IMG/VR virus record: IMGVR_UViG_3300027749_000040
Coordinates: 32,001-96,000 of that record
Source of the DNA: a virus
Strand: one strand, 5' to 3'
DNA length: 64,000 nt
Shown: positions 15,594 to 50,140 of the stretch, piece after piece
Layout: every line of letters starts with the position of its first letter
Numbering within the stretch: position 1 is the stretch's first letter
Translations under genes and position numbers: made by a program
Notes under the pieces: model-generated
Database searches by the model: none
The model's input: only the letters and a program-made list of their open reading frames with translations
Told to the model about the DNA's origin: nothing

Positions 15594-15600
15594 GTAATGA

Positions 15601-15606: not shown

Positions 15607-15611
15607 ATACT

Positions 15612-15764
15612 ATGAATAATCAGGAAAATAATAAAAAACCACAATTAACAGAAGAATATGGCTCAACGCCGGACGAGTCTGGTGGTTTCTATTTTTCATC
15701 TTTTTTGAAAATAACTGATCCAAATACCAAAGAAATTTTAGTCGAAACACGGGGCGATAACTAA
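15612..15764 (+). CDS. Small 50-aa protein (not in the ORF track), similar to the N-terminus of the next gene
   Basis: MNNQENNKKPQLTEEYGSTPDESGGFYFSSFLKITDPNTKEILVETRGDN*. TAATG overlap with the next start. FLKITDPNTKEILV resembles FLKVYDPNNGEVFV of 15764..16384. Confidence 0.75.
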   Translation: MNNQENNKKPQLTEEYGSTPDESGGFYFSSFLKITDPNTKEILVETRGDN

Positions 15765-16384: not shown

Positions 16385-16386
16385 GA

Positions 16387-16392
16387 TAAATA
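16387..16392 (+). promoter_or_regulatory. Putative late promoter (TAAATA motif)
   Basis: gaTAAATAaac in the gap before SD GGAG (16403-16406) and ATG 16416. Confidence 0.45.
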
Positions 16393-16415
16393 AACAAGAC
16401 CCGGAGTGATTTGAA

Positions 16416-17639: not shown

Positions 17640-17649
17640 GGATAAAAAA

Positions 17650-18603: not shown

Positions 18604-18627
18604 TTTTTCAATACATTGGTATCTATC

Positions 18628-18633
18628 TAAATA
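18628..18633 (+). promoter_or_regulatory. Putative late promoter heading the modification cluster
   Basis: atcTAAATActc followed by SD AGGAG (18639-18643) and ATG 18650. Confidence 0.5.
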
Positions 18634-18649
18634 CTCTTAGGAGTTACAG

Positions 18650-18958
18650 ATGGATACCAAAACCTTAATCAGCGAGGCGAGAGCCAGATTTAATCATAAC
18701 GCTGCCAAAGCTCAATTAAAAGACAAATATGATGGCAAATTTATTGTTGCCGAACAAGGGGGACTTTGGAAAGCAACCCCTGAATTCATTGCATTTTTAA
18801 GTGCATTATCAGATGATAACTTTGTTATATTAATTGATACCTTTGACAACCCAGTAGAAGTTAAGCGTGAACAACTACTAACAATACTAAAAGCTACTTA
18901 TAGTAAAGTCATGCTTGATTGGCACAAAGAATGGAAAGAACTAGAGTCAAAACGATGA
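18650..18958 (+). CDS. Hypothetical protein, first gene of the modification cluster
   Basis: 102-aa ORF with a strong SD. ATGA-coupled to the next gene. Confidence 0.75.
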   Translation: MDTKTLISEARARFNHNAAKAQLKDKYDGKFIVAEQGGLWKATPEFIAFLSALSDDNFVILIDTFDNPVEVKREQLLTILKATYSKVMLDWHKEWKELESKR

Positions 18959-19758
18959 GTAGAGGAGCAATATTATTTGCATTCAACTCGCCTAAGTTTG
19001 ATTACTACAAAATGGCAGTTGCTACTGCAAAAAGAATTAATCATTTTTTGGATATGCCTGTCACAGTTGTGACAGATGAATCTTCTGTGTCCAATGACCC
19101 TTATAAATTTGACAACACTATATTAGTTGAACCTGATAAAAGCAACTCTAGAGATTGGGGCATGTGGATCAACAAGGGTCGATATCAAGCATATGAACTA
19201 AGCCCATATGATGAAACATTATTACTTGATACTGACTATATGGTCAATTCAAATAAGATATTAGACATATTCAATTATTATGATGACTTTTGCTGTCATA
19301 ATAAAACAAGTTATTTGATGCAACCTGGATTAGTACAAGAAGTTCTTAGCGTTTATAGTTTTGAAACACTATGGGCAACAGTAGTTGCATTTAAAAAATC
19401 AAATCGTACTAAGCAAATATTTGAATGTTTAGAAATGGTTCAGAAAAACTTTGAACATTACAGTAACTTGCATGGATTTGTTGCGGGAACATTTAGAAAT
19501 GATTACGCATTAACCTTAGCACTTAGAATTGCTAATGGTCATTCATTTGCTAAACAAGACTTTATCCCATGGAACTTAGTTCATTTGGGCCAAAAGAATG
19601 TACATATCTATAAAAATAATGATGATGAATTTAACACAGAATATACTGTACTACATGATAATTGGCAACGTGGTAAAATCAAAAAAGAATATACAACAAT
19701 CAAAGACATGGATTTTCATGTGATGAACAAACTTAACTTTATGGAATTAATAGCATGA
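18955..19758 (+). CDS. GT-A fold glycosyltransferase-like protein
   Basis: Probable start at ATG 18955 (ATGA overlap). YELSPYDETLLLDTD carries a DxD motif; also FRNDYA and a C-terminal FHVMNK. Confidence 0.7.
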   Translation: MSRGAILFAFNSPKFDYYKMAVATAKRINHFLDMPVTVVTDESSVSNDPYKFDNTILVEPDKSNSRDWGMWINKGRYQAYELSPYDETLLLDTDYMVNSNKILDIFNYYDDFCCHNKTSYLMQPGLVQEVLSVYSFETLWATVVAFKKSNRTKQIFECLEMVQKNFEHYSNLHGFVAGTFRNDYALTLALRIANGHSFAKQDFIPWNLVHLGQKNVHIYKNNDDEFNTEYTVLHDNWQRGKIKKEYTTIKDMDFHVMNKLNFMELIA

Positions 19759-20531
19759 CTAGAGGTTTTGTAATTATGGCACAGAACACGGAAAAAACTG
19801 ACTATGTAAAGTGTGCTAAAGCATTAGAGTTGAGTATCAAGCGGGTAATGCCAGATGCTAATGTAACTATTATCACAACTGATATTTTGCCACACGGAGA
19901 TCAAGCACCTGATAGTGATTGGAAACTTATTAATGACTGGCAAGTATATGAAGCTAGTCCATATGATGAGACAATCAAGTTAGAAGCTGATATGTTTTTA
20001 CCACGTAGTATTGAGCATTGGTTTGATATTATGTCAATCAATGATGTAACATTGTGTACAAAGATACGAAATTATAAGGGTGAGATTTCTACAGTAAGAG
20101 TTTATAGGAAGTTTATTGATGACAACAATCTACCTGATGTATACAATGCTATTACTTATTTTAAAAAGTCTGAAATGGCAAAACAATTTTTTGATATAGT
20201 AAGAGATGTGTTTGAAAATTGGGAAATATATAAAACAATACTGAAATGTAACCCAACAGAAAAAGCAACAACTGATTGGGTATATGCAATAGCAAGTCAT
20301 ATAATAGGTGTAGAAAAAACAACATTACCTAGTTTTAATGAATTGTCTATGACACATATGAAACAATTTATTTCCGGAACTCCCACTGAAAATTGGACGG
20401 ATACATTGGTGTATGAATTATTGCCAGATGTTTTACGAGTACACACTTATTCACAAGAGTATCCGTTTCACTATCATTCAAAGTCATTTAGTGATAAAAT
20501 AATAGAAAGCTACAAATGGAACACGTATTAA
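19755..20531 (+). CDS. GT-A fold glycosyltransferase-like protein (paralog of the preceding gene)
   Basis: YEASPYDETIKLEAD (ExD variant), TTDWVYA and PFHYH. Aligns by eye with 18955..19758. Confidence 0.65.
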   Translation: MTRGFVIMAQNTEKTDYVKCAKALELSIKRVMPDANVTIITTDILPHGDQAPDSDWKLINDWQVYEASPYDETIKLEADMFLPRSIEHWFDIMSINDVTLCTKIRNYKGEISTVRVYRKFIDDNNLPDVYNAITYFKKSEMAKQFFDIVRDVFENWEIYKTILKCNPTEKATTDWVYAIASHIIGVEKTTLPSFNELSMTHMKQFISGTPTENWTDTLVYELLPDVLRVHTYSQEYPFHYHSKSFSDKIIESYKWNTY

Positions 20532-20848
20532 TTTGGGAACCGGTACCATTAGTAAAGCCTGAATTCAGGCTTTACTATGATGACAAAGGTAAAGTTCTTT
20601 TCTATTCATGTGAAAAACTTGAGGGTAATTACATTGTTATAGATGCTACTACATATTCAATTGGTCGACCGGACTTACGAGTTATTGACGGTAAAATTTC
20701 TACAGCAGTACCTAGTTTGGTTGTTTCAAAATTAATGCCAAATAGTGAAGGTATTGCTTGTACTGAAGAAGATATTAGTATTGTAGTAGATAAAAAATAC
20801 AAAGGTAAAACTATTAATTGGAATTTAATAACGTATGAACTCGAATGA
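20516..20848 (+). CDS. Hypothetical protein
   Basis: 110-aa ORF overlapping both neighbours in the operon. Confidence 0.65.
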   Translation: MEHVLIWEPVPLVKPEFRLYYDDKGKVLFYSCEKLEGNYIVIDATTYSIGRPDLRVIDGKISTAVPSLVVSKLMPNSEGIACTEEDISIVVDKKYKGKTINWNLITYELE

Positions 20849-21788
20849 TATTATTGATGTAGCAGATTTAGATTGCATTTATCTAAGTTACGATGAACCG
20901 CAAAAAGAAGAATTTTGGCTTAAAGTCAAACACATGGTGCCATGGGCAAAGCGTGTTGACAATGTTAAAGGTAGTGATGCGGCACACAAAGCCGCAGGTG
21001 AAGCAAGTGATACAGAACGTTTCATTTTAATTGATGGTGATAACATGCCAGAAGAAAGTTTCTTCAACATTCAATTAGATTTTACAGACAAAGACAAAAC
21101 ATTCAGAAAAGCACAGTTTAGATGGAAAGCAATTAACAGTATCAATGGCTTGCGCTATGGTAATGGTGGTATGAGCAGTTGGACAAAGACTTACGTGCGT
21201 GAAATGCAAACGCATGAGCATCAAACGGAGGGTGATGTTTCACGTATAGCTGACTTTTGTTTAGACAGCAAAGATAATCTATATTGGGCGATGCATGATT
21301 GTTACAGTACAACATATCCTAACTATACAAGTTTTCAAGCGTGGCGTGCAGGTTTCCGTGAAGGTGTTAAAATGAGTTTGAATCGAGGCGTGCGCCCAAC
21401 GGTAGATGAATTCAAAGAAACAGTTGCAAGCAGAAATCTAAACAACTTGACTATCTGGCAGAACGTGGGAATGGATGTAGAGAACGGTGAGTGGGCGATC
21501 ATGGGAGCACGTATGGGAACTCATATGACTATGCTAACTGATTGGGACGTACATAATGTTCAATGGTTTGATAACTATCCTGCAATGTGGGAGACAGTTA
21601 AAGATGAAGACCCACTAGAACTATCAGAAACATATGGTGTTGAACTAAGCACTAAGCTAGGCTTACCAATGTGTGCGTTAGATAGTAAACAGAGTAAGTT
21701 TTTCAAGCGACACTATGGATCAAATTTTCATAACAAAGGTCCACTAGTAACTGAGATGGAAGTGATTCGTGAGATTGAAGGTTGGTAA
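20835..21788 (+). CDS. Glycosyltransferase-like protein (GT-A-like)
   Basis: LSYDEP, AAHKAA, LIDGDN (DxD) and AWRAGFREGVK. The same domain occurs at the C-terminus of 44463..49160. Confidence 0.6.
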   Translation: MNSNDIIDVADLDCIYLSYDEPQKEEFWLKVKHMVPWAKRVDNVKGSDAAHKAAGEASDTERFILIDGDNMPEESFFNIQLDFTDKDKTFRKAQFRWKAINSINGLRYGNGGMSSWTKTYVREMQTHEHQTEGDVSRIADFCLDSKDNLYWAMHDCYSTTYPNYTSFQAWRAGFREGVKMSLNRGVRPTVDEFKETVASRNLNNLTIWQNVGMDVENGEWAIMGARMGTHMTMLTDWDVHNVQWFDNYPAMWETVKDEDPLELSETYGVELSTKLGLPMCALDSKQSKFFKRHYGSNFHNKGPLVTEMEVIREIEGW

Positions 21789-22450
21789 TGCAATTATATG
21801 ATCCATCTAAGAAAGGCACAATTGTAGTTGGACATATGCGTTCAGGTTCTCAATATTTATTGAGTCTAGTTAAAATAGAATTGCAAAAAAATAATGTTGA
21901 ATTTGATGACAACGGAGAATACTTTAAAGATATATTCAGTGCCATTAGATATACTGATAATAGTTACTCATTCTTAAATATTATTGACAAAATAAAAAAA
22001 CAGGACATTAGTACTAATTATAGTGTGGGTACAATCGTCTATCCTAATAGCTTAGATATGATTAGTCAGCATAAGTCAAATTATAATTATTTTTCTAATA
22101 ATTATCATCTTATTAAAATGATTAGAAAAGATGTTATGGCACAATTTATGTCATACATGGTATTTATTGAATCAAAGGCACTACATAGCGGTATAAAATC
22201 AATGGACGAAGTTAAAATAAATACTCCTTATACAGCAGGCAGACTTCATATAATACATTATCTAAATAAACTATTAGAATTAGAAAGATTTAAGGCTGAC
22301 ACAACTGTATACTATGAAGATTTACCGCACTTACCCATACCAGGTCTAACAAAAAATAATTATAATATGACCCCTAAAGAATTTTTTAAAAATTACGATG
22401 ATATTGTAAATCAAATTAACGAATTAAATATAACACATTATGAGCGGTGA
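21788..22450 (+). CDS. Sulfotransferase-like P-loop protein
   Basis: Probable start at ATG 21788 (TAATG overlap). GHMRSGSQYL resembles the 5'-PAPS-binding loop, IRKDVMAQFMS the 3'-phosphate-binding motif; VYYEDL downstream. Confidence 0.55.
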   Translation: MQLYDPSKKGTIVVGHMRSGSQYLLSLVKIELQKNNVEFDDNGEYFKDIFSAIRYTDNSYSFLNIIDKIKKQDISTNYSVGTIVYPNSLDMISQHKSNYNYFSNNYHLIKMIRKDVMAQFMSYMVFIESKALHSGIKSMDEVKINTPYTAGRLHIIHYLNKLLELERFKADTTVYYEDLPHLPIPGLTKNNYNMTPKEFFKNYDDIVNQINELNITHYER

Positions 22451-24005
22451 ATACGATCAATTCGCTAGAGATATGCGTGACCGCTTGAATGCGGTTAGTC
22501 CATCACTATGTTTGGCAAAGTGGCAACAAGTCTCTATTCACTTACCTAGTGGATTGACTCAAAGTTGCTATCATCCACCAACACATAAGATACCTCTAGA
22601 ATTACTCAAAGACAATCCTAGCGTATTACACAACACCCCAATCAAAATACATGAACGTAAGCAAATGCTTGAGGGCAAACGACCAGAAGGTTGTAGTTAT
22701 TGCTGGAAAGTAGAAGACGCTAAGAGCGAAGACCCTAAAGGTCATATGAGTGACAGACACTATCGCAGTAGCGAATGGTGGAACGCACCCACGTTTGAAG
22801 AAGTCACACAAAACAAGTTTGATTATGATGTTGTACCTCGGTATGTAGAAGTTAACTTTAATCAGGCATGTAACTTTAAATGTATGTATTGTAGTCCTCA
22901 TCTTTCTAGTAGTTGGGAAGAAGAAGTTAAAAAGCATGGTGGTTATCAATTAACCGGTATGATACATAATAACTTAAAAGCACTAGAACAAAAAGGAATG
23001 ATGCCACTCAAGGTTGCAAATAAAGACAACCCCTATGTTGAAGCATTCTGGCAATGGTTTCCTGAAATATATCGTAAACTACGTGTGTTTAGAATGACCG
23101 GTGGCGAGCCACTTATGGACAAGAACACATTCAAAGTGTTAGACTATGTAAACAAAAACCCACACGGTCAACTTGAATTATCTATCACAAGCAACATGTG
23201 CCCGCCCGATCAGAAATTATTTGACAAATTTGTTGAAAAAGTCAAAGCAATTGAGACACTACGCACATATGAAGACACAGAAAACTTCAATGTACATAGC
23301 GGTAACAACTGGTATGTAGACAAAGGATTCAAACACTTTTGGTTGTTTGTATCACTAGATGGTTTTGGTGAGCAAGCAGAATATATGAGAACTGGATTAG
23401 AGTTTGAACGCATGTTGAATAACGTAAGAACTTTTTTACGTGAAACAAAATATTCTACTGTGAGTTTTATAAACACATTCAATATCATGTCTATTCCAAG
23501 TTTACATAAGTTCTTAGAAATGGTATTAGAATTACGTGCTGAGTTTGGTGGAAGAAGTCAAGTTGAGTTTGAGATTAGTCCTGACCAAACTGAAACAGAA
23601 AAAGAAAATAACATTGTTCACAAGGTTTATACTCAAAAGAAATATCAACGTGTGTTCTTTGATATTCCAATATTACGTTACCCGCCGTGGTTTAATATTC
23701 AAAACAGCGGACAATATGGAATTGATGAAGTAGAACGTTGCTTGAAGTATATGGAAGACAATGTACAGGGTGATGACTATTTGGAAACATTTGAGGGATT
23801 TAAACCGTATGAGATATTGAAAATTAAGCGAGACCTTGCTATAATGAAAGAATCTCTACCCCCGGACCAACTTTTACTAAATAAAAAGAACTTCTACATG
23901 TTTATTACAGAATATGATAGACGCAGACAAACGAATTTTATGGAAACCTTTCCGGAACTAAAGAGCTACTGGAGAGAATGTATCAAAGCGCACACTAAAC
24001 ATTAA
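22440..24005 (+). CDS. Radical SAM protein with N-terminal Twitch-like domain (#1)
   Basis: CNFKCMYC and TGGEP. N-terminal CLAKW..SCYH..CSYC. Confidence 0.92.
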   Translation: MSGEYDQFARDMRDRLNAVSPSLCLAKWQQVSIHLPSGLTQSCYHPPTHKIPLELLKDNPSVLHNTPIKIHERKQMLEGKRPEGCSYCWKVEDAKSEDPKGHMSDRHYRSSEWWNAPTFEEVTQNKFDYDVVPRYVEVNFNQACNFKCMYCSPHLSSSWEEEVKKHGGYQLTGMIHNNLKALEQKGMMPLKVANKDNPYVEAFWQWFPEIYRKLRVFRMTGGEPLMDKNTFKVLDYVNKNPHGQLELSITSNMCPPDQKLFDKFVEKVKAIETLRTYEDTENFNVHSGNNWYVDKGFKHFWLFVSLDGFGEQAEYMRTGLEFERMLNNVRTFLRETKYSTVSFINTFNIMSIPSLHKFLEMVLELRAEFGGRSQVEFEISPDQTETEKENNIVHKVYTQKKYQRVFFDIPILRYPPWFNIQNSGQYGIDEVERCLKYMEDNVQGDDYLETFEGFKPYEILKIKRDLAIMKESLPPDQLLLNKKNFYMFITEYDRRRQTNFMETFPELKSYWRECIKAHTKH

Positions 24006-24013
24006 GGAATAAA

Positions 24014-25540
24014 ATGGCAGGCAAGAAACACGAAGAATCATTTGCACAATACAAATCACGACTTATCGACCCCATTAGCGATAGCTATTGTGCCGCTAAG
24101 TGGCTAAATGCTACTATCTGGTTAGGCAACGGACAAACAACCAGTTGTCACCACCCATTAGGTCATCAAATTGATGTCAATGAACTAGCCACAAATCCTT
24201 CAGCAATTCATAATACTCCGCACAAGAAACTAATGCGTAAAATGATGCAAGAAGGACAACGCCCGCAAGAGTGTGAATACTGCTGGAAGATTGAAGATAT
24301 TGGTCGTGATAACATGAGTGATCGTGTTTATAAAACTGCTGTGTTTGAAGAATCAGATATTCTTAAAACTGCCAAAGCAGATTGGCAAGAGAATACAATG
24401 TTGAAGACATTAGAAGTTTCTTTTGACCGTACATGTAATTTTGCTTGTAGTTATTGTAATCCAAGTTTCAGTACAACATGGGTTAAAGATATTCACAAGT
24501 TTGGTCCTTATCGTAACATTGACGGTGATGCACGTAGTCACTTTATCAATGAAGCTGACCATGCTAAACCACTAGCGGACGATATTAATCCATATTCACA
24601 GGCATTTTGGCGCTGGTGGGAAGAAGGACTTGCTGACAACTTAGAAGAAATTCGCATTACGGGTGGTGAACCATTAATGGCTCCGGGTGTATGGAAGTTG
24701 TTTGAATGGTTTCGTAATAATCAAGAACGTGCGACAAATCGTCCAGACGGTAAGGTATTGCGCTATGCTATCAACAGTAACTTAGTTCCCAAAGATGATA
24801 TCATGGACAAGTTAATTGAGTATAGCAAATTTGTTCCCTATATGGAAGTATATACAAGTTGTGAAGCTTTTGGTGCTCATGCTGAATATATCCGTGATGG
24901 TTTTGAATGGAACAAATGGATTCATAACCTAGGTAGATTGCACACTGAAGGCAATATCAAAAAGACACACATGATGATGACTATCAATAGTTTGTGTTTG
25001 GCTAGTATTGTTGAGTTCATGGATCAAATGATGGAATTCAAAAAGATTCACAACACGATGTATCCTACAATGAGTTTAAACATCTTGCGTTTCCCTAGCT
25101 TTCAAAGTTGTGCTATGTTGCCAACTGAGATTCGCCAAAAGTATAAAGACAAACTACAGGTATGGTTAGACAATCAGATTGCTATGGATTTCCGTACTAG
25201 TGAAGGTGCACCAATGTTGATGAGTATTGAGCGTGAACAAACACAACGATTGATTGATTACCTTGACGTTGTTAAAACACCACACAAGAATGTTAAAGAC
25301 ATTCCGCAGAATCATAGAGACTTTAAACAGTTCTATGCTCAATATGATGTCCGTCGTGGTAAGAGTTTCCGTAATACTTTTCCACCAGAGTTTGTTGCAT
25401 TCTATGATAGTATTCAAACAGAATTGCCAACAGCAGATGAAATTATTACACAAAATTACCGTCAAGGTGTTGATTTGATTCCGGAGCATCCACCTGAAGA
25501 TCCAAGCAAAGATGTATTTTTTAACCAAGATTTACAATGA
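24014..25540 (+). CDS. Radical SAM protein with N-terminal Twitch-like domain (#2)
   Basis: CNFACSYC and TGGEP. N-terminal CAAKW..SCHH..CEYC. Confidence 0.92.
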   Translation: MAGKKHEESFAQYKSRLIDPISDSYCAAKWLNATIWLGNGQTTSCHHPLGHQIDVNELATNPSAIHNTPHKKLMRKMMQEGQRPQECEYCWKIEDIGRDNMSDRVYKTAVFEESDILKTAKADWQENTMLKTLEVSFDRTCNFACSYCNPSFSTTWVKDIHKFGPYRNIDGDARSHFINEADHAKPLADDINPYSQAFWRWWEEGLADNLEEIRITGGEPLMAPGVWKLFEWFRNNQERATNRPDGKVLRYAINSNLVPKDDIMDKLIEYSKFVPYMEVYTSCEAFGAHAEYIRDGFEWNKWIHNLGRLHTEGNIKKTHMMMTINSLCLASIVEFMDQMMEFKKIHNTMYPTMSLNILRFPSFQSCAMLPTEIRQKYKDKLQVWLDNQIAMDFRTSEGAPMLMSIEREQTQRLIDYLDVVKTPHKNVKDIPQNHRDFKQFYAQYDVRRGKSFRNTFPPEFVAFYDSIQTELPTADEIITQNYRQGVDLIPEHPPEDPSKDVFFNQDLQ

Positions 25541-26934
25541 CGAATAAAATCATTCCATTATGGGAACACGCAAAGCCCCATAAAGATAGTAAGAACAAGG
25601 TGTTCTGTATGGCACCCTGGACTCACACTTATATCAGTCCGCAATCTGAAAGACGATTGTGCTGTGCCTCACGTGAAGAACATTCGTTCCAGAAACAATA
25701 CATTGATAGTAGTAATGATTCAAAGTACGGAACTGTAACTGAAAGTAAGACAGCATTAGATGACTATCAACCGGTAAGTTTGAAAGAACATTGGAATAGT
25801 GAATACATGAAAGACATTCGTGTGAAGCTAATGCGCGGTGAAGAAATTCCTCAATGTGATGTATGTAATAAGAACCTATTGATGGAGGGCTATTCATACC
25901 GTGGTTGGTTTACTGGATCATTGTTTAAAGATAAGATACAAGAAGCATTTGATAAGACAGATGATACCGGTCACACTACAATGGAACCAATAAGTTTTGA
26001 TTATCGTTTTAGTAATCTATGTAACTTTAAGTGCCGCATGTGCGGTGAGCAATTGTCTAGTTCATGGGAAACTGAAAAGAAAGTTCATAACTTGTGGAAC
26101 GAGAAGAATCAGCCATTCATGGTTCCTGAAATCAAGTCAGCTATGAAGACTTTTCAAGAAGAAGTTGTTGAAGTTGAATTTCGTGATGCAGTAAGTCGCG
26201 GTATTGTGGAAGAAATGTATTGGGTCGGTGGTGAGCCATTAATGTATGACGTTCACTGGTGGACGCTAGAAGAAATGTTAAAGAACGGTAGTAACAAGAA
26301 TTGCTATATGCGTTATAACAGCAACTTAAGTAGGGTACAGTTTGGTAAAAAGAACTTATATGACTATCTTCCATTGTACAAAGACTGGATGATGTGCGCT
26401 AGTATTGATGGTACTGGAGAGATTGTAGAATACATTCGCACAGGTATCAAGTGGGATGTGTGGCTTGAGAACTTTAAGAAAGGTCTTGAGTTACCTAATG
26501 GTAAAGACAAGATGATTCTTGATCTAACATTAACTGCACCGGGCATGTTTAGTTTGAAAGAACTATTTGACTTGAGTATTGAATTAGATGTTAAGATTGA
26601 AACTAAAACAACGTTTGGCTTTCATGCTGACATTATGTGGACACCATTAAGTTGGCCACGTGAGGTACTAGATGAAATGATTGATGACATACTTGCTTAT
26701 ATTCAACCACGTGCTACTTGGAAGCAAGCAACGTTGATTGGTAATTTAGAAGCATTGAAGAATACACGGAAGACTCATGCAGAAGAATGGCCCGATACTT
26801 ATAAGCAAGCCGCATTGAATGGTAAAAATTGGGTTAAAAGATTAGAAAATATTCGTGAAGACACTGCCGTTACCATGCGTAGCATTTATAGTCGAAATCC
26901 TAAACTACTAGAATGGTGGGATAACATAGGATGA
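25537..26934 (+). CDS. Radical SAM protein with N-terminal Twitch-like domain (#3)
   Basis: CNFKCRMC and VGGEP. N-terminal CMAPW..LCC..CDVC. Confidence 0.92.
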   Translation: MTNKIIPLWEHAKPHKDSKNKVFCMAPWTHTYISPQSERRLCCASREEHSFQKQYIDSSNDSKYGTVTESKTALDDYQPVSLKEHWNSEYMKDIRVKLMRGEEIPQCDVCNKNLLMEGYSYRGWFTGSLFKDKIQEAFDKTDDTGHTTMEPISFDYRFSNLCNFKCRMCGEQLSSSWETEKKVHNLWNEKNQPFMVPEIKSAMKTFQEEVVEVEFRDAVSRGIVEEMYWVGGEPLMYDVHWWTLEEMLKNGSNKNCYMRYNSNLSRVQFGKKNLYDYLPLYKDWMMCASIDGTGEIVEYIRTGIKWDVWLENFKKGLELPNGKDKMILDLTLTAPGMFSLKELFDLSIELDVKIETKTTFGFHADIMWTPLSWPREVLDEMIDDILAYIQPRATWKQATLIGNLEALKNTRKTHAEEWPDTYKQAALNGKNWVKRLENIREDTAVTMRSIYSRNPKLLEWWDNIG

Positions 26935-42050: not shown

Positions 42051-42138
42051 AAATTTATATCACAGTATAAAATCGGAAATTCGTTATCGTAAACGATTAA
42101 AAGAATTACGCAAAAGAGATCCCTTCATCTACAAATGA
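42034..42138 (+). CDS. 34-aa basic micro-protein ending DPFIYK (not in the ORF track)
   Basis: MFKWIKNLYHSIKSEIRYRKRLKELRKRDPFIYK*. SD GAGGAG at 42021-42026. ATGA-coupled to the next gene. Confidence 0.75.
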   Translation: MFKWIKNLYHSIKSEIRYRKRLKELRKRDPFIYK

Positions 42139-42959
42139 TACAATTTGTTAATTTATTAGATTCTGAATCGTTAGATGATGTAACTGGATATACTAAAACA
42201 GAACATTTGACTTGGACTGATGAACCGTACAGAATTGATTTTGCATCACGTGGGGAAATAGAACATGCTAGTTCATGGCAAGGTCCTCACTTTGATTACT
42301 ATTTTAATAAATTAGGATTCCGATCCTCAAATGATATACCTAGCAGTATAGATATAGGCGCATTTGGTTGTAGCTTTACAGCTGGATTAGGATTACCCGA
42401 GAATTATCTTTGGCATAACTTACTAGCCAATGAATTAGAGTTGACATCTTTAAATTTTGGCGTGTCTGGGGCATCATGCACATCTATTAGAGATTTATTT
42501 TTAATTACATCTAACCATATACAAATGAAACATGCTGTATTTTTGTTACCTAGCTATAATAGAATGCAAATTGGAATAAAGCACATGCAAAAAGATATGT
42601 TGACTAATTTATCTTTAATACCTGGTTTAAAAAGTGAACTATCATATAGTTATGGGGTAGATGTTGAAATGTTATTCAAACATATACCCGATGATGAACA
42701 AATAAAAACCTTTAAAAATGACATATACTTAATAGACTATGTTGCAAAACACAGAGATATTAAAGTATATTTTTCATCTTGGGACGGTGACACATATAAT
42801 TTGCTTAAGCAATTAAACTTAAAGAATAGTACGGTGGTGCCGTTATGGAGTTCACAGAGTAAAGAACAGGCAGACTCAGATTTAGCTAGAGACAAAAAAC
42901 ATCCCGGCCCCATACATCATAAACAATGGGCTGATGTTGTTAGGGAATTTATTAAATGA
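42135..42959 (+). CDS. SGNH-like hydrolase-fold protein
   Basis: FNKLGFRS, FGCSFT (GxS block I), NFGVSGAS and ARDKKHPG (DxxH). Confidence 0.65.
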   Translation: MIQFVNLLDSESLDDVTGYTKTEHLTWTDEPYRIDFASRGEIEHASSWQGPHFDYYFNKLGFRSSNDIPSSIDIGAFGCSFTAGLGLPENYLWHNLLANELELTSLNFGVSGASCTSIRDLFLITSNHIQMKHAVFLLPSYNRMQIGIKHMQKDMLTNLSLIPGLKSELSYSYGVDVEMLFKHIPDDEQIKTFKNDIYLIDYVAKHRDIKVYFSSWDGDTYNLLKQLNLKNSTVVPLWSSQSKEQADSDLARDKKHPGPIHHKQWADVVREFIK

Positions 42960-44452
42960 ACTATATAGGTATATCCTCAGGATTTCACGATGCCGCACTA
43001 AGTGTTATAGATGACAAAGGTAATATATTGTTTGCCGGCCACAGTGAACGTTATAACAAAGACAAACACACAAAGCACTTGTGTTATGATATAGTTGAAG
43101 ATGCACTATCATATACAACCTCACGTGATATCAAGATTCATTACTATGAACGCCCTTGGATGAAGTTTCTGCGACAAGTTAGATCAGGTGAAAAACCTGT
43201 ATTATCTAATTTGTTTGTTAAAGAGATTATAGGTCGTGGATTACTTCATAAGTTACAAGATGGTCGTGGTGATAAGGTTCATACACATAATCATCACCTA
43301 AGTCATGCAGCCGCAGGATTTCAAACAAGTCCCTATGATGATGCTACTGTAGTTGTTATTGACGCTATTGGTGAGTTTGACACAATCAGTATTTATAATG
43401 CATGGTATGACAAAAATGGTGTAGCAAAATATAAGAAGTTATGGGGACAATATTATCCTAATAGCATTGGTTTGTTTTATAGTGCAATGACACAACGAGT
43501 GGGTTTAAAACCACTAGACGAAGAATACATTCTTATGGGTATGGCAGCATATGGTAAATCAAAACCAGTAGATAAGATGTCTACTCAGTTAATAAAATCA
43601 TACAGAGACATTACATTCAGGGATAACTTGCACACGGGTGTATCTGATAACTTTTTAGAGGGTGCAGATAACATGGATATTGCTTGTAGCGCACAATTAA
43701 TTGTTGAACAATTAATTACTAATGTTATCAGCAAAGCAAAAATGTTAGGCGGTAGCAAGAATTTTGTATATAGTGGCGGAGTCGCACTAAATTGTTTAGC
43801 AAATAGATTGTTAGGAAACTTTTACGACAACATTTGGATTATGCCTAATCCCGGCGATGCTGGTTCTAGTCTTGGAGCAGCCTGCCTTGGCTATGGCAAA
43901 CATGTTAATTGGACTAATGCTTTTCTTGGTCATAATATTAGCGGTAATTATCCTACCAATCGTATTCTTGACTCTCTACTTACTGATAAAATTACAGGAG
44001 TCGCTAGTGGTAGAGCAGAGTTTGGGCCCAGAGCACTTGGACATAGAAGCTTGCTTGCAGATCCACGAGGTAATGACATAAAGGATAAAGTAAATGAAAT
44101 TAAACGTAGACAAAAATTCAGACCCTTCGCCCCGATTATTCTGGAGGAACATGCTGATACTTACTTTGATATGCCTCATGGTTTCAGTAATAGTAGGTAT
44201 ATGCAAGTCATCAGTCGTTGTAGGGTACCTGACTTATTTCCTGCTATCGTTCATCACGACGGTACTAGTCGTGTACAGACAGTCCCAAAAGATGGAAGTG
44301 GAATTAGAGAACTACTTGAAAAATGGTACATACTAACAGGATGCCCTATGTTGTTGAATACATCATTGAATGTTCGCGGAGAACCAATGGTAAATGACCG
44401 AAAAGATGCGGATCGCTTTGAATTAATGTATAATGTAAAAGTTATATCATAA
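42956..44452 (+). CDS. Carbamoyltransferase (NodU/CmcH/TobZ family)
   Basis: HDAA, HHLSHAA, IDAIGE, GGVALNC, GDAGSSLGAA, EFGPRALGHRS, FRPFAP, DGTSRVQTV and LNTSLN. Confidence 0.93.
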   Translation: MNYIGISSGFHDAALSVIDDKGNILFAGHSERYNKDKHTKHLCYDIVEDALSYTTSRDIKIHYYERPWMKFLRQVRSGEKPVLSNLFVKEIIGRGLLHKLQDGRGDKVHTHNHHLSHAAAGFQTSPYDDATVVVIDAIGEFDTISIYNAWYDKNGVAKYKKLWGQYYPNSIGLFYSAMTQRVGLKPLDEEYILMGMAAYGKSKPVDKMSTQLIKSYRDITFRDNLHTGVSDNFLEGADNMDIACSAQLIVEQLITNVISKAKMLGGSKNFVYSGGVALNCLANRLLGNFYDNIWIMPNPGDAGSSLGAACLGYGKHVNWTNAFLGHNISGNYPTNRILDSLLTDKITGVASGRAEFGPRALGHRSLLADPRGNDIKDKVNEIKRRQKFRPFAPIILEEHADTYFDMPHGFSNSRYMQVISRCRVPDLFPAIVHHDGTSRVQTVPKDGSGIRELLEKWYILTGCPMLLNTSLNVRGEPMVNDRKDADRFELMYNVKVIS

Positions 44453-44462
44453 GTAAATATCT

Positions 44463-47400
44463 ATGCTAAGAGATGTATTTTATTTCGGAGAAAAACCCAA
44501 TGTTCACCCTAGAGAAAAGTTTGCAACAGATTTAGTTGACGCTAAACGACAGTGTACAACCGAACACTTTTGGATAATAAACGAACATTGTAATTATAAA
44601 GATTTTGATTGGGACTGGGAGTTTGACTTCCTGCCTGACGAAGATGTATGGGCTGAAGAACACAATAATGTATGGCCAAGTCCCTATCAGAAAGATAGTG
44701 GCACTTGTCTGTGTTCAACTAATTTAGATGCAGTAACAATATATCGTGCTGATGTTGATCCTATACCATTAAAAGATGAAATAACAAACAACTGGAAGAT
44801 TATTGAGTACATTGATGAATCTAAATTTGATTTTAAATGGCACCCAGACCCAAACGATCCGCCGTACATTTATGTATGGGGTAATAAATGGTATCCCGGT
44901 ACAATCATGCCAACAGTTGAGTATCATGTACCTGGGGCAACAGATAGAAAATATATATTAGACAATTTAGCACCATTATTGCCTATGCCAATGTTGTTTA
45001 ATATTATATATGAGCCTGCTGACTTTGATTATAGTTGGAGACCAGACCCAACTGCACCACCATACATATATGTGTTTGGTAATAATCAACATCCAGCAAG
45101 CGTGATGCCAACAGTTGAGTTTCATGTAGAGGGGGCGACTGAGCGCAAATTCATTGAGAATATTATACCCAAGTTAGCCGCAAGACCCGCTGACTTTGAA
45201 ACACTAGAAAATATTGATCCAACAACATTTGACATGACATGGGTTCCTGACCCGACGGCACCTCCTTACATTTATGCTTGGGGTAATCAATGGAATAAAC
45301 CTGAAGATAAGATTAGTGTTATACGTAGAGTAGAAGGTGCAACTGAATACAAATACATGGAAGCACGTGTAAAACGTAATCCATGTATGGATAACTGGAA
45401 TATACCTAATAACATGTTTCAAAATAAGTTTGACTTTAGCTGGGAACCCAATCCACATGATCCACCATTTATATATCAGTTTGGTACGCAATGGCAAAAG
45501 ACAGGCGGTCCCAAATATGTCGTAGAAGGTGCAACGGAGATAAAATATATAGATGTATTAAAAGCAGAAGTAGTTTGCACACAGTTTGAAAATTGGCAAG
45601 TGCCAAGAAATATAGACCAAACTAAGTTTGATTTTAGCTGGCATCCAGACGATACTGAAGAACCCTTCATTTATCAGTTTCCCGATCAATGGACCCGTAC
45701 AGGTGGTCCTAGATATGTAGTACCAAGCGCAACTGAAATAAAATACATAGATGTACAAATAGCAATTGCTAAACAAGATAAAACACATTGGTCAATACCT
45801 GAAAATATTGATACAACTGACTTTGACTTCAGTTGGCATCCCGACATTGACCATGCACCATTGATATATCAATTCGGTACGCAATGGCAACGAACGGGCG
45901 GTCCTAAATTCTACGCAGTAGGTTGTACTGAAGATAGCGACATACAATATGTGGATACTCTTAAAGCTAAAGCAATAGTTGACATGAGTAACTGGTGTGT
46001 TCCTAACAACTTAGATATAGATACGTTTGATTTTAGCTGGCACCCAGACGCTACAGAAGATCCGTTCATCTATCAGTTTGGAACTGAATACTCTAAAGTA
46101 GGTGGACCTAAGTATACTGTCAACGGAGCAACTGATATCAAATACGTTGCAGATATCATTGCTAAATTGCAACAGAATTATGACAACTGGATTATACCTG
46201 ACTACATTGATAAAGGCTCATTTGATTTTAGTTGGGTACCCGATGTTGAAGACAAGCCTTATATCTATCAGTTCGGTACACAGTGGCAAAAGACAGGTGG
46301 ACCAAAGTATGTAGTAGAGGGTGCATCTGAGATTAAGTATGTTAATGTAATTAAAGCAAAGAAATTGCAACATGAAAATACTGCATGGAAAACATTAATC
46401 AATATAAGTGATTTTGATTTCAGTTGGCATCCCGATGATTCAGATGAACCCTACATATATGTGTTCGGCAATCAATGGAATGATGCTACATTAGAATCTA
46501 CTGTAGAATATCATGTTGAAGGTGCAACACAAAGAAAATATGTTACTGACTTAATTGCTCAGGCAGCACCGTACAAAGAAGATTGGGTCAACGTAGAAGA
46601 TGTAGAAAGTTTTGACTATAGCTGGAGACCTAATCCAACCGACCCTGCATACATATATGTGTTCGGTAATACGCAGTATCCAAACACAATCATGCCAACT
46701 GTCAAGTTAGTAAAACGTGGTGCAACACAAGAAAAGTTTATAGATGATATGGTAGCCACATTGGCACAAAAGCCTGAGTTGTTTATTAACACAAAATTAA
46801 TTAAAGACTTTGATTATTCATGGAGACCTAATCCTAAGGATCCCCCATATGTGTATCAGTTTGGTACACAGTGGGCTAAGACACATGGGCCTCAATTTAC
46901 AGTAGAGGGTGCTACTGAAAGCAAGTTTGTCAACGAACCAGTATCAACTATCTTACCTGATATGACATATTGGGAAATACCAGAGAACGTTGACGTAACT
47001 AAGTTTGACTTTAGCTGGCATCCTGATGCAACTAGCCCTCCGTACATCTATCAGTTTGGTACAATACTAGATGAGAAAGATGGTCCTAGATATATTGTTC
47101 CTGGCAACACTGGTGTTGTTGTTAATATAGAACGTACAGAGATTGTACTAGAAGAATTAGAATTCCCTAAGTATACAATTAAGACTACACTAGAAGATTT
47201 GATTGAAGACCATACCGGTGAAATCTTCTGGGCATTAAACCCTGATTTAGATTATAGTGAGTTTGACTTCAAGTGGGTACCTGATAAACAAAACGTTTAT
47301 CATGTTAACGCATTCGGTAGTAAAGATAACATGAACTCACAAACTTACTTTGTTAACGGTAAGATGTGGCAAAAGGGTTATAGAGATATAAATTATATTG

Positions 47401-49160
47401 AAGATAAAGTAGTTGAAGTTCGTACTAAGATTGACATGTTCTTCATTGACAAGGGCAATAGTGAGTCGCTAGCTAGATTCCAACAACTACGTGAAAGATT
47501 CCCCAACATAACTAAGACAAGATATCTAAACAGTTGGGTAGAAACAATTAATCGTTGTATAACTAAGTCTGAAACAAATTTATGCTGGATATTGAATAGC
47601 GAACTAGATTATACTGACTTTGAATTTGATTACTATCCTAGCCCGTGGCAGATGCGTATGGTACATGTGTTTGGAACTCAATGGAGTCACTGGGGCACAA
47701 CATTCATGGTCAATAAGACTACGTTCCCTGAAGATACAAAGTATGTCAAAATTATTGAGCACTTATCCACATTAAACTTTGTTAAACGTAAGACAGCAAA
47801 AGCAACCAATTGCTTATATGATATTGTAATGATTGACCATGGCAATAAAGAAACACAATATATTCGCAAAATTGTCAAAGACAGAACTGGTAGAGATTCT
47901 GAAATTGTTAAGTACAATAGAAGCTATTTACAAACATTTAAGTCAATGTTGAAAGACATTCAACCTAAGAAAGAACACTATCTTTGGGTATGTTCTAGTA
48001 TCTGTGACTATGAAAACTTTGACTTTAGTTATATATGTGATCCATATGCTAAAGATCAACTGCATGTTTTCCCTAGTGACAAACAAAAGTTTGGAGATAC
48101 ATTCTTAATCGATGTAAGCAAGTTCAAGTTATTAATTGATGATATGATTATGATAGAAGACTATGAGAAGGTTAATTATAATCAACATCAAAGAGTAAAG
48201 CGTTTACCAGCACCCGTTATTATTACAAAAGAAGATACACATGTCACTAATATTCATACTGATTTTGATTGGCCTTACGCTACGTTTGTCACGCAAGACA
48301 ACAAAGAATTAAATGTACATGATAATGAACCTATAAGCTTATGGACACTTGACACCAAGAACATACTGATTACTAGTACAGGTGGAACACGAATTATTGT
48401 CCCTAAAGAAGCAAAAGATTATGTAGAGAATGAACTGTATGATTACCCATACATCAGTCGTAGCAAATCTCTAGCGCAATCCCAGCCATTGGATATAGTC
48501 TTCCTAAGCAACGGAGAAACTGGAGCTGACGAGAACTACGAACACTTACTGAAAGTGACTAAGGGATTACGTAATAGAGTTGTTCGTGTTGATGGCGTGA
48601 ATGGTCGTGTAGCGGCATATCACGCAGCCGCACTAGCAAGCAACACACCTTGGATGTTTACTGTGTTTGCTAAATTAAAAGTCAATAATAAATTTGATTG
48701 GAGTTGGCAACCTGACAGATTGCAAGTTCCTAAGCATTATATCTTTACTGCATCTAACCCAGTAAACAAACTAGAGTATGGTCACCAAGCTATGATTGCC
48801 TACAACAAGCGTATCACACTTGCTAACAATGGTACTGGTCTTGACTTTACGCTTGACAATGAACATGAAGTTATTGAAGTGAATAGCGGTGTTGCTGTGT
48901 ATAATACAGATGCATGGAGTACATGGCGTACTGCATTTAGAGAAGCAATCAAATTAGTTGCCGCAACTGATGATATGTCTAAACAAAGACTTGATGCATG
49001 GTTAAATATTGGTGAAGGAGACTTTGCTCAATATAGTTGCAATGGTGCAAAAGATGCAGTAGAATACTACAATCAAGTCAATGGCGACTTAGACAAATTG
49101 CGTTTAAGTTATGATTGGTTATGGCTAAAAGAATATTATAATAAAAAATACAAATTATGA
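44463..49160 (+). CDS. 1,565-aa repeat protein with C-terminal glycosyltransferase-like domain(s)
   Basis: 12 tandem ~65-aa repeats, then degenerate GT-like modules and a terminal domain (LSNGE..AYHAAA..WRTAFREAIKL) homologous to 20835..21788. Confidence 0.75.
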   Translation: MLRDVFYFGEKPNVHPREKFATDLVDAKRQCTTEHFWIINEHCNYKDFDWDWEFDFLPDEDVWAEEHNNVWPSPYQKDSGTCLCSTNLDAVTIYRADVDPIPLKDEITNNWKIIEYIDESKFDFKWHPDPNDPPYIYVWGNKWYPGTIMPTVEYHVPGATDRKYILDNLAPLLPMPMLFNIIYEPADFDYSWRPDPTAPPYIYVFGNNQHPASVMPTVEFHVEGATERKFIENIIPKLAARPADFETLENIDPTTFDMTWVPDPTAPPYIYAWGNQWNKPEDKISVIRRVEGATEYKYMEARVKRNPCMDNWNIPNNMFQNKFDFSWEPNPHDPPFIYQFGTQWQKTGGPKYVVEGATEIKYIDVLKAEVVCTQFENWQVPRNIDQTKFDFSWHPDDTEEPFIYQFPDQWTRTGGPRYVVPSATEIKYIDVQIAIAKQDKTHWSIPENIDTTDFDFSWHPDIDHAPLIYQFGTQWQRTGGPKFYAVGCTEDSDIQYVDTLKAKAIVDMSNWCVPNNLDIDTFDFSWHPDATEDPFIYQFGTEYSKVGGPKYTVNGATDIKYVADIIAKLQQNYDNWIIPDYIDKGSFDFSWVPDVEDKPYIYQFGTQWQKTGGPKYVVEGASEIKYVNVIKAKKLQHENTAWKTLINISDFDFSWHPDDSDEPYIYVFGNQWNDATLESTVEYHVEGATQRKYVTDLIAQAAPYKEDWVNVEDVESFDYSWRPNPTDPAYIYVFGNTQYPNTIMPTVKLVKRGATQEKFIDDMVATLAQKPELFINTKLIKDFDYSWRPNPKDPPYVYQFGTQWAKTHGPQFTVEGATESKFVNEPVSTILPDMTYWEIPENVDVTKFDFSWHPDATSPPYIYQFGTILDEKDGPRYIVPGNTGVVVNIERTEIVLEELEFPKYTIKTTLEDLIEDHTGEIFWALNPDLDYSEFDFKWVPDKQNVYHVNAFGSKDNMNSQTYFVNGKMWQKGYRDINYIEDKVVEVRTKIDMFFIDKGNSESLARFQQLRERFPNITKTRYLNSWVETINRCITKSETNLCWILNSELDYTDFEFDYYPSPWQMRMVHVFGTQWSHWGTTFMVNKTTFPEDTKYVKIIEHLSTLNFVKRKTAKATNCLYDIVMIDHGNKETQYIRKIVKDRTGRDSEIVKYNRSYLQTFKSMLKDIQPKKEHYLWVCSSICDYENFDFSYICDPYAKDQLHVFPSDKQKFGDTFLIDVSKFKLLIDDMIMIEDYEKVNYNQHQRVKRLPAPVIITKEDTHVTNIHTDFDWPYATFVTQDNKELNVHDNEPISLWTLDTKNILITSTGGTRIIVPKEAKDYVENELYDYPYISRSKSLAQSQPLDIVFLSNGETGADENYEHLLKVTKGLRNRVVRVDGVNGRVAAYHAAALASNTPWMFTVFAKLKVNNKFDWSWQPDRLQVPKHYIFTASNPVNKLEYGHQAMIAYNKRITLANNGTGLDFTLDNEHEVIEVNSGVAVYNTDAWSTWRTAFREAIKLVAATDDMSKQRLDAWLNIGEGDFAQYSCNGAKDAVEYYNQVNGDLDKLRLSYDWLWLKEYYNKKYKL
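44793..47111 (+). repeat. Intragenic tandem repeat: 12 units of ~63-68 aa
   Basis: Consensus W-x-I-P-x-N-I-D-x3-FDFSWHPD-x4-PYIYQFGTQW-x2-TGGPKY-x-VEGATE-x-KY, counted by eye. Confidence 0.9.
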
Positions 49161-50140
49161 AATATCTAATCGTAGAGATGTATATTTCCAAACATTTTGA
49201 AATGTGTGATGAGTTTATACATAAATTAAAAACAGAAGAATATGATGTTTGTATTTTTTATGCACCATCTGAATGGGAATATTGGTTTGTTCATGATTTT
49301 AAAAACTTATGGAATACCATGACAGAAATAATCTATAGTAGAAACAAAAAAATAGAAGTAATTACTGGGGCGGCCAGAGTATTATACGGGGAACCTAAAC
49401 TAGATTATGTCACGGTTCATCCATGGGATACTTATTGGATAACATTAACACATCATAGCCTACAAAATTATGTAAGAGAAACAAAGCTATACACTTACAA
49501 ATACATTTATATGAATAACAATGACCATGCATGGCGTTGTAAACTTATAGATTTGGTAGCTAAGAATAATTTGATTAAGCATGGTGCAGTCTCATGGCAT
49601 AAATTGCGTTATAATTATCCATGGAAATATTTTAAACCTGAAATATTAAAATTAACGGATTCGTTCTCCGGAGATTTTTTTGATATTTTTACACTCCCTG
49701 AAGAATATGATAATTCTTTTATGCAATTGATTAGTGAAACTACTGTCAATGCTCTTTTTATTACGGAAAAAACAGCTATACCACTACTAACATCTAAACC
49801 ATTTTTAGTAGCATCTGTTACTGGTTATCATGCACATTTAAAAAAATTAGGATTTGAGTTATATACTGAAATTTTTGATTATTCATTTGATGATGAAATT
49901 GACGAAGATATAAGATATCAAAAATTACTTAGTAATTTAATTAAAATATGTAATTATTCAAAAGATCAACTAACATCAGCTCACCATCTGATTAAAGAAA
50001 AACTGTTGTTTAATCAAAACAGAGCAATAGAAATTGCAACCAAAAATATTAATAAACCTAGTATTTTAAATAATTTTCCCGAAAAGTTTTGGCATTCCGA
50101 TTCAATGATATATAATAAATATATGTTTATGACTGTATGA
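49157..50140 (+). CDS. Putative glycosyltransferase-like protein (GT-B-like C-terminal half)
   Basis: LISET..FITEKT..KPF..LKKLGF..FDYSFD string resembles the nucleotide-sugar-binding motif of GT10-like enzymes. Confidence 0.45.
   Translation: MKYLIVEMYISKHFEMCDEFIHKLKTEEYDVCIFYAPSEWEYWFVHDFKNLWNTMTEIIYSRNKKIEVITGAARVLYGEPKLDYVTVHPWDTYWITLTHHSLQNYVRETKLYTYKYIYMNNNDHAWRCKLIDLVAKNNLIKHGAVSWHKLRYNYPWKYFKPEILKLTDSFSGDFFDIFTLPEEYDNSFMQLISETTVNALFITEKTAIPLLTSKPFLVASVTGYHAHLKKLGFELYTEIFDYSFDDEIDEDIRYQKLLSNLIKICNYSKDQLTSAHHLIKEKLLFNQNRAIEIATKNINKPSILNNFPEKFWHSDSMIYNKYMFMTV

Follow-up and report, generated by a model that had tools for sequence, protein, structure and literature searches.

We found that an operon of a large, uncultured, freshwater, T4-like phage, situated directly behind its tail-fibre-type genes, encodes thirteen radical S-adenosylmethionine (rSAM) enzymes of one uncharacterised family together with glycosyltransferase-fold and sugar-tailoring proteins, and that it probably constitutes a glycan pathway, whatever the target. 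The operon occupies positions 18650-50140 of the window, by which we mean the whole 64,000-nucleotide stretch analysed, bases 32001-96000 of a single 174,470-bp IMG/VR virus record (IMGVR_UViG_3300027749_000040) with a CheckV completeness of ~50%; positions refer to the window unless the genome is named. The initial annotation of this DNA had proposed a pathway that decorates the virion with a glycan. The sugar toolkit of that proposal was borne out by glycosyltransferase folds, a carbamoyltransferase, a sulfotransferase-like fold, SGNH-like proteins and the context of bacterial relatives; the virion as acceptor is suggested by gene order alone, and we favour the fibre or virion as the target tentatively, with doubt slightly outweighing confidence. 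For the whole account, in which the phage builds and heavily edits its own glycan and the fibre proteins are the most likely acceptor, we consider the chances evenly balanced.

The operon comprises 26 long open reading frames (ORFs; 102-1565 residues) and one conserved 34-codon ORF, every one on the + strand, in agreement with the run of about 27 near-gapless genes described initially. The overlap-type junctions noted at that time were counted as 4-nt ATGA overlaps at 11 junctions and 1-nt overlaps at two. No true gap exceeds 10 nt: the largest real ones measure 8 and 10 nt, and an apparent 84-nt gap is occupied by the 34-codon ORF (42034-42138). Convincing transmembrane segments are absent throughout the operon's proteins, which makes a cytoplasmic location of the chemistry probable. 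Ten non-rSAM unknowns of the operon gave no functional match in Pfam (E up to 10) or PHROGs. Because the glycosyltransferase (GT), sulfotransferase and SGNH candidates were without a Pfam or informative PHROG match, we examined them by fold and profile. A 104-codon ORF (50205-50519) follows directly after the operon.

All 14 rSAM genes that had been counted in the operon carry CxxxCxxC, and thirteen of them score 179-352 bits on NCBIfam NF033640 (N_Twi_rSAM, twitch domain-containing radical SAM protein), for which the curated cut-off is a whole-protein score of 170 bits. Twelve of these N-terminal-twitch (N-twitch) genes are arranged in tandem between 22440 and 38100 (22440-24005, 24014-25540, 25537-26934, 26931-28160, 28157-29335, 29332-30618, 30609-31817, 31814-33121, 33078-34229, 34204-35529, 35519-36847 and 36847-38100), and the thirteenth is at 40746-42050 (235 bits). 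The remaining gene, 38100-39272, encodes a canonical rSAM with CxxxCxxC at residue 21 and a C-terminal SPASM domain (Pfam SPASM, residues 284-350, E 7e-7); at 47-48 bits it falls below the NF033640 cut-off and is not a member. The thirteen paralogues share 19-48% pairwise identity. Their CxxxCxxC lies at residues 90-162, behind an N-terminal twitch domain in which C19, C38, C81 and C84 are invariant and which matches Pfam SPASM in 7 of the 13. They thus resemble NF033640 proteins in having a four-cysteine twitch domain ahead of the CxxxCxxC barrel as well as in score, and differ from the family as seen in bacteria in forming an array of 13, compared with 4-8 in the bacterial loci examined.

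In a tree of 175 sequences, the phage N-twitch paralogues fell into at least six old subclades intermixed with bacterial sequences, and recent duplicates were confined to three sets (31814/35519/26931, 30609/33078 and 29332/40746). A single recent burst as the origin of the paralogues was ruled out by this topology. Because the paralogues are dispersed over at least six old subclades with only three sets of recent duplications, the array appears to be a set of long-separated specificities. A fourteenth N-twitch gene, also above the NF033640 cut-off, is found at genome positions 100963-102060, where it adjoins the T4-type large terminase gene and shares some bases with that gene's start (positions 7061-9722 of the genome stretch 93900-113800); a class I methyltransferase gene lies two genes before it. 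Besides this gene, the genome holds two further rSAM genes outside the operon. Genome positions 132062-132364, which lie outside the window, encode an A-type carrier of Fe-S clusters (PF01521, E 4e-20), as fits a phage that needs clusters for about 17 rSAM enzymes; no flavodoxin was found.

A profile search against solved structures aligned residues 9-78 of the N-twitch profile with residues 184-258 of BtrN, the C-terminal twitch domain of that enzyme (E 1e-5). BtrN is the twitch rSAM dehydrogenase of butirosin biosynthesis, and its substrate is a carbohydrate-like aminocyclitol. The auxiliary-cluster domains of the two are alike in sequence, but the domain is C-terminal in BtrN and N-terminal in the phage family, and the likeness is confined to it; outside the twitch domain, BtrN is not the closest solved relative, with 8vpo and SkfB scoring higher. 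The four-cysteine auxiliary cluster and the twitch-domain likeness to BtrN are what suggest the type of radical reaction proposed below. To our knowledge, only a few small-molecule pathways are known in which rSAM enzymes act on glycans.

Two glycosyltransferase families of the operon were confirmed by fold, as judged from predicted models. The first is a GT8-like GT-A pair, GT8a (18955-19758) and GT8b (19755-20531), which are paralogues of each other (29% identity, E 3e-12). The ORF of GT8a opens at 18919; because its orthologues begin at the ATG at 18955, that is the likely start, as originally assigned. When the AlphaFold2 (AF2) model of GT8b, with a predicted local distance difference test score (pLDDT) of 73.6, was compared with the PDB by Foldseek, 163 matches were obtained at E <= 1e-3, and the top 50 were nearly all glycosyltransferases; the matches include the LH3 GT domain, LgtC, glycogenin, PBCV-1 A64R and GlyE (E 5e-6 to 2e-4, TMq 0.4-0.52). 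Across 9 orthologues and paralogues of the pair, D79 and H239 are invariant, and an acidic or polar residue stands two before D79 (consensus LDxDM), which gives the pair a DxD metal/nucleotide-sugar motif and a distal His. With curated GT8 sequence models, neither protein gave a Pfam match even at E 10, and the sole PHROG match of the pair was phrog_1903, of unknown function.

The second family, which we call GA, is an unnamed GT-A-fold family with a C-terminal helical domain, represented by 20835-21788 (AF2 pLDDT 93.8). Residues 2-185 of this protein aligned with GT-A enzymes at Z 9.3 (B4GALNT1) and 7.6-8.6 (WrtF, A64R and others), with a root-mean-square deviation of 3.1-3.6 A over ~140 residues, and D67xD69 is nearly invariant in the family. 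There are more than 8000 near homologues, in 1102 clusters at 50% identity, and some members are fused to GT-B domains; the family had no Pfam or PHROG function match, and a PDB sequence search with a 53-sequence profile was empty. A GA-type GT-A domain also forms the C terminus of a 1565-residue protein (44463-49160), a paralogue of 20835 in that region (26% identity, E 7e-5). This domain is preceded by ~13 repeats of ~65 residues, spaced at 64-74 residues, with the core FDFSWHPD...P.IY.FG. Homologues of the giant protein are present in the related loci L001, L002 and L016 and in the cultured phage RsoM2USA. The last operon gene (49157-50140) gave a weak GT10-like lead (ESM Atlas feature lead, 0.79). 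Its E194 and T203-E204-K205 are invariant in 10 paralogues, with a conserved ...TET...TEK...P motif, and its profile found no match in the PDB; related phages have 1-4 paralogues. Thus, of the five GT-like genes first listed, 18955, 19755, 20835 and the C terminus of 44463 were supported by GT-A fold or paralogy, and 49157 retained only the weak GT10 lead. Two small conserved ORFs without a family match are interspersed with these genes, s1 (18650-18958, 102 residues) and s2 (20516-20848, 110 residues).

One clearly assigned tailoring enzyme is an O-carbamoyltransferase of the TobZ/NovN/NodU type (42956-44452), for which the initial assignment was upheld by both Pfam domains, Carbam_trans_N (E 1e-33; 117 bits, cut-off 24) and Carbam_trans_C (E 4e-47; 160 bits, cut-off 27), and by matches to PDB sequences of NovN (4e-50), GdmN (8e-45) and TobZ (1e-33). 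On the NodU equivalog NF041651 it scored 136 bits, short of the cut-off of 1000. Its solved relatives are O-carbamoyltransferases, whose substrates are sugars for NovN and TobZ and a polyketide for GdmN. The phage enzyme resembles TobZ, NovN, GdmN and NodU in both Pfam domains, with strong sequence similarity to the solved enzymes, but is ~80-200 residues shorter than these and is accompanied by the basic 34-codon ORF ending in ...RKRDPFIYK, which occupies the apparent gap before 42135. Copies of this ORF that are 71-85% identical were found in L084, L001, L002, L016 and L036, where it is better conserved than the carbamoyltransferase (about 60%); in three of the five relatives it ends at the carbamoyltransferase start codon. 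We considered the ORF as a split-off piece of the carbamoyltransferase and rejected this, as it has no similarity to the longer bacterial carbamoyltransferases.

The other tailoring candidates were placed by fold or profile. The protein encoded at 21782-22450 has a sulfotransferase-like fold in its ESM Atlas model (predicted template modelling score, pTM, 0.76). Its nearest Atlas clusters are of the Stf0, Sulfotransfer_3 or NodH type (TM 0.65-0.72, with these families in 10-100% of cluster members), and it carries an RSGS motif at residues 20-23. It had no Pfam match, so that the sulfotransferase-like label was backed at the level of fold only. The gene lies between GA and the first rSAM gene in this phage and is absent from all 80 related loci, which makes it an accessory of this phage. 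The three proteins labelled SGNH-like kept that label on the basis of their GDS or GCS motifs and of hhalign probabilities of 63-94% against the bacterial GDSL cluster A5, in alignments that span blocks I-II or I-III only. These are 39269-40000, with an N-terminal GDS (63%, E 7e-5, blocks I-III), 39997-40749 (79%, E 2e-5) and 42135-42959, with GCS replacing GDS (94%, E 2e-7, 66 columns). In the 39997 family (24 homologues), G11-D12-S13, G71 and D223-x-H225 are invariant or nearly so, the last with DxH rather than DxxH spacing. None of the three had a Pfam match; searches of the PDB with 39997, by phmmer and with the 24-sequence profile, gave nothing usable, and hhalign found no relation between 42135 and the 39997 family. 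The 42135 protein is related to a GDSL family that adjoins N-twitch rSAM genes in bacteria.

We then compared the locus with other viruses. Relatives of 20835 are encoded on at least 594 IMG/VR contigs, of which we examined the best 80, reading each locus with 10-kb flanks, within which rSAM counts reach at most 7 per locus. The order fibre-type genes, s1, GT8a, GT8b, (s2), GA was found in 74/74 loci with enough upstream DNA, with s2 present in 71 related loci. The glycosyltransferase genes thus lie inside a structural-gene module in all of these and in RsoM2USA, and the synteny with tail genes that had been proposed as a check was found. A 22440-type rSAM is the next recognised gene after GA in 69/75 loci; farther downstream there are usually types 24014, 31814/35519, 28157 and 25537, and then often a carbamoyltransferase. 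The close relative L084 is without 26931, 30609, 31814 and 39269, which indicates that the array gains and loses members. RsoM2USA, a cultured jumbo phage of Ralstonia solanacearum, has two GT8 genes, GA, one N-twitch rSAM and a second GA. This core module, RsoM2USA_347-354, lies behind a 2540-residue protein, and all of its genes are annotated as hypothetical.

Three tail-fibre-type genes (15764-16384, 16416-17639 and 17650-18603, all on the + strand) stand directly upstream of the operon and encode the candidate acceptors. In PA5oct-like phages, the 16416-17639 product finds its matches among virion structural, baseplate or tail-pin proteins, and it has a weak Peptidase_G2 chaperone-domain match at its end. 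The three are rich in T/A/G/N/S, and 17650-18603 is rich in T/G/N/S. Directly upstream of them, ORF 111-15593 (+ strand, at least 5160 residues; it may begin before the window) contains T, G, N and S at 12, 8, 8 and 8% and may be a second candidate glycan acceptor.

The intergenic region between the fibre genes and the operon (18604-18649, + strand) contains CTAAATA, then AGGAG and then the ATG, and is a candidate T4-type late promoter of the operon. The TAAATA motif reported after the tail genes is indeed present, as CTAAATA at 18627-18633, with 16 nt (18634-18649) separating it from the first ATG of the operon, and it is conserved in relatives: the block ATCCATCTAAATAC is kept before the orthologous gene in relatives with differing flanks. 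CTAAATA-type motifs are late promoters in T4-like phages. Of the 35 copies of TAAATA in the window, 8 lie in intergenic DNA, which makes up 3.6% of bases, an enrichment of about six-fold, and a CTAAATA-like GTAAATA stands 9 nt upstream of the 44463 ORF. Exact TATAAATA was not enriched in the window (2 + strand copies vs ~8.5 expected), and a scan of 15000-23000 for sigma-70 promoters and terminators was uninformative.

In bacteria, relatives of the 13 N-twitch enzymes are encoded in polysaccharide loci, a context that is supported but not uniform. A scan of one genome per prokaryote species with a four-sequence alignment gave 272 relatives, of which 79 loci were kept; four of the 79 were plain phage contigs binned into metagenome-assembled genomes (MAGs) and were set aside. 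Contigs L016 (183 kb) and L036 (148 kb) of a Haliscomenobacter MAG and L038 (12 kb) and L040 (47 kb) of a Rickettsiales MAG carry the fibre-GT-rSAM module in phage order and are most likely phage contigs binned in this way. Recurrent neighbour clusters were GT4/GT1, GT2, ABC exporter ATPase, PhyH dioxygenases, GDSL, UDP-glucose dehydrogenase and SDR (short-chain dehydrogenase/reductase) epimerases. We compared 138 genes lying no more than two positions from a family member with 119 genes of the same loci at a distance of at least 6 positions; near the N-twitch rSAM genes, the most frequent Pfam family was GT2 (11/138 near vs at most 1/119 far; Fisher p 0.001-0.007). N-twitch arrays in bacteria contain 4-8 copies; one locus has eight, and another combines six copies with four GDSL genes and a GT4. 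On the bacterial MAG contig L008 (1057-3861, - strand), a 934-residue protein consists of a carbamoyltransferase fused to an N-twitch rSAM. Long fusions were seen on the bacterial MAG contigs L008, L041 and L015, and an Elusimicrobia contig encodes four consecutive proteins of 673-939 residues containing the N-twitch family. Another heavily tailored kind of polysaccharide locus is L042, from a Chitinophagales MAG, where a single N-twitch rSAM, two GT4 genes and an ABC exporter ATPase are surrounded by twelve PhyH-family dioxygenase genes.

Further sugar-related genes lie downstream of the operon on the + strand. The epimerase and aminotransferase reported there were corroborated by Pfam and PDB matches. 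The former, at 61963-62937, is a nucleotide-sugar SDR epimerase/dehydratase (Pfam Epimerase E 2e-39; best PDB match UDP-glucose 4-epimerase, E 5e-25) and is likely a sugar-supply gene outside the operon. The latter, at 63106-63999, is a DegT-type sugar aminotransferase that runs beyond the window end (Pfam DegT E 2e-30; full length 349 residues; best PDB match glutamine-scyllo-inositol transaminase, E 2e-25). With a following 315-residue rSAM gene, SDR and DegT form a tight trio (positions 64-3207 of the genome stretch 93900-113800). The asparagine-synthetase-like gene placed in the same region could not be substantiated: the sole sign in 52078-53067 is a degenerate TAGLDSS motif, and Pfam gave no match. 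The 183-residue product of 51473-52024 (+ strand), with an N-terminal signal-like hydrophobic stretch, a C-terminal ...KVSF and no Pfam match, looks from its sequence like a small phage-encoded outer-membrane beta-barrel. At 54465-57105 (+ strand), a MoxR-type AAA ATPase stands before a VWA-domain-containing, DUF2201 metallopeptidase-like protein, a known phage gene pair whose role is unclear. A 412-residue protein at 58457-59695 (+ strand) matches GH113, a beta-mannanase family (E 1e-8), and could be a depolymerase or another sugar-handling enzyme.

Taken together with the bacterial context, these genes lead us to infer a glycan as the substrate of the rSAM enzymes, along with the radical chemistry, the acceptor and the timing of the following scheme. 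The GT8-like pair, the GA enzyme and the repeat-plus-GA giant protein would lay down sugars from nucleotide sugars, part of which the downstream SDR, DegT and rSAM genes may furnish. Each of the 13 N-twitch enzymes would then take a hydrogen atom from a particular sugar C-H, giving oxidation or epimerisation at a defined position, with the fully cysteine-ligated auxiliary cluster serving as an electron conduit, as in BtrN. The carbamoyltransferase and the sulfotransferase-fold protein would add carbamoyl and sulfate, and the SGNH-like proteins would add or remove acyl groups on hydroxyls. The acceptor would be the fibre proteins, T/S/N-rich products of the genes immediately upstream, and their modification would take place in the cytoplasm ahead of assembly; they are our best guess because of the invariant linkage of the module to fibre genes. 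A bolder form of the scheme, which we hold to be doubtful, makes the N-twitch enzymes post-assembly glycan editors, radical epimerases or dehydrogenases that address one C-H position each and convert a simple glycan, the work of three to five transferases, into a coat of complex stereochemistry and chemistry on the receptor-binding fibres.

Several observations weigh against a virion-glycan pathway. Our literature search gave no characterised NF033640 member and no known substrate, and characterised SPASM/twitch enzymes act mostly on peptides. The GT, sulfotransferase and SGNH assignments are fold or profile similarities, with a Pfam match for none. About half of the bacterial loci are without annotated polysaccharide clusters, PqqD domains occur in 3/138 near neighbours, and some of the other contigs labelled bacterial may likewise be mis-binned phage. 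Late expression is a candidate trait, for which the one pointer is the conserved T4-late-like motif. Gene order does not identify the acceptor, and a host polymer is an equally feasible substrate because the bacterial relatives occur in ABC-transporter-type pathways, which act on cytoplasmic lipid-linked polymers.

The same enzymes could therefore remodel a host envelope polysaccharide such as O-antigen or capsule during infection, possibly to block superinfection or to keep progeny from sticking to cell debris, with the virion not being the target. We judge this unlikely but take it seriously as a rival, because ABC-type polysaccharide pathways are where the bacterial relatives work: those of the rSAM, GDSL and carbamoyltransferase proteins belong to surface-polysaccharide loci that also carry ABC exporter ATPases and ABC-2 permeases, and such pathways complete the polymer in the cytoplasm, within reach of soluble phage enzymes. 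The phage also encodes the outer-membrane-like protein (51473-52024) and the GH113-like glycosidase. However, genes for a flippase, polymerase, polyprenyl-phosphate transferase or membrane protein are all missing from the operon, host remodelling leaves the strict fibre-gene linkage (74/74 loci) unexplained, and the candidate late promoter would leave little time for it. A peptide substrate seems to us less probable still. The rSAM enzymes would then act like maturases of peptides that are made on ribosomes and modified after translation (RiPPs), epimerising, cross-linking or oxidising amino acids of the fibres or of a small peptide, and the sugar enzymes would be separate. That SPASM/twitch enzymes are mostly peptide maturases, to many of which the phage proteins show weak NCBIfam side-matches, speaks for this, as do the position of the array behind fibre genes, the presence of a conserved 34-codon ORF within the operon and the PqqD-domain genes that adjoin bacterial family members (3/138). 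But a PqqD-like, RiPP-recognition domain was matched in none of the 14 operon enzymes, the N-terminal domain of the family being the twitch domain itself; no adjacent precursor-peptide gene was found, and it is the carbamoyltransferase, rather than the rSAM genes, that the 34-codon ORF accompanies; the enriched neighbour in bacteria is GT2, not peptide genes; and the carbamoyltransferase fusion ties the N-twitch family to hydroxyl-decorating chemistry. Peptide chemistry is thus made less likely by the missing recognition domain, the enriched glycosyltransferase neighbours and the fusion.

That the operon hypermodifies the phage's DNA by attaching decorated sugars, extending base glycosylation of the T4 type, is very improbable in our view. 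The phage is T4-like, with relatives of the T4-type large terminase, the gp9/10 baseplate protein, gp32 and UvsX/RecA just beyond the window, and Pyle et al. 2024, as cited in PMC12619734, credit phage glycosyltransferases with an ability to build glycans on DNA. Yet the 174-kb record, ~50% complete, contains a single thymidylate-synthase-family gene, a true ThyA match (359 bits), and no hydroxymethylase-like second copy, and fibre genes, rather than replication genes, are what the module is linked to. We give an equally slight chance to a free small molecule, aminoglycoside-like or derived from nucleotide sugars, made during infection. Twitch rSAM, TobZ-like carbamoyltransferase, DegT and SDR are enzyme types of aminoglycoside pathways, and the best solved relative of DegT is an inositol transaminase; but among the genes scanned there was no cyclitol synthase, resistance gene or exporter, a polymer or protein acceptor is a better fit for three to five glycosyltransferases and a 1565-residue repeat protein, and the bacterial relatives are in polysaccharide loci, not antibiotic loci.

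Our preferred account, a phage-borne glycan on the fibres, has precedents in part. Virion glycosylation in mycobacteriophages has been described (Freeman et al. 2023, cited in PMC12619734); in these phages, in chloroviruses with glycosylated capsids (PBCV-1 A64R) and here, virus-encoded GT-A enzymes lie beside structural genes, and both GT families of the present phage have A64R as one of their structural matches. Those systems use a few glycosyltransferases, without rSAM, carbamoyl, sulfate or SGNH tailoring; the virion glycan proposed here is a candidate. Bacterial ABC-type polysaccharide loci (e.g. L042, L064, L037 and L008) have the same enzyme combinations, including the carbamoyltransferase-rSAM fusion and arrays of rSAM plus GDSL genes, but the phage version is without exporter, membrane genes and PhyH, is linked to fibres and has the largest rSAM array among the loci examined. 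A T4-like environmental viral genome with 12 rSAM genes and an A-type Fe-S carrier has been described (Nishimura et al. 2017, PMC5332604). Both genomes are T4-like with a dozen rSAM genes and an Fe-S carrier; that report lists Fe-S-related auxiliary genes, without operon structure, family assignment or substrate hypothesis. Our literature search found no description of this operon type.

These data place an uncharacterised rSAM family in 13-14 copies in one phage, in a module that occurs on at least 594 viral contigs and is linked to a GT-fold family of more than 1100 sequence clusters that databases leave unnamed. Because the cultured RsoM2USA carries the minimal core, the question is open to direct bench testing. 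If the fibres are decorated, the module would add a new level to phage-host recognition or to protection from defences, and would be a rich source of new carbohydrate-editing enzymes. If the N-twitch enzymes are indeed glycan editors, they would be the carbohydrate counterpart of the radical epimerisations that build polytheonamides, and diversifying or masking of fibres in this way would be common to hundreds of aquatic phages, with predatory and other bacteria sharing the chemistry.

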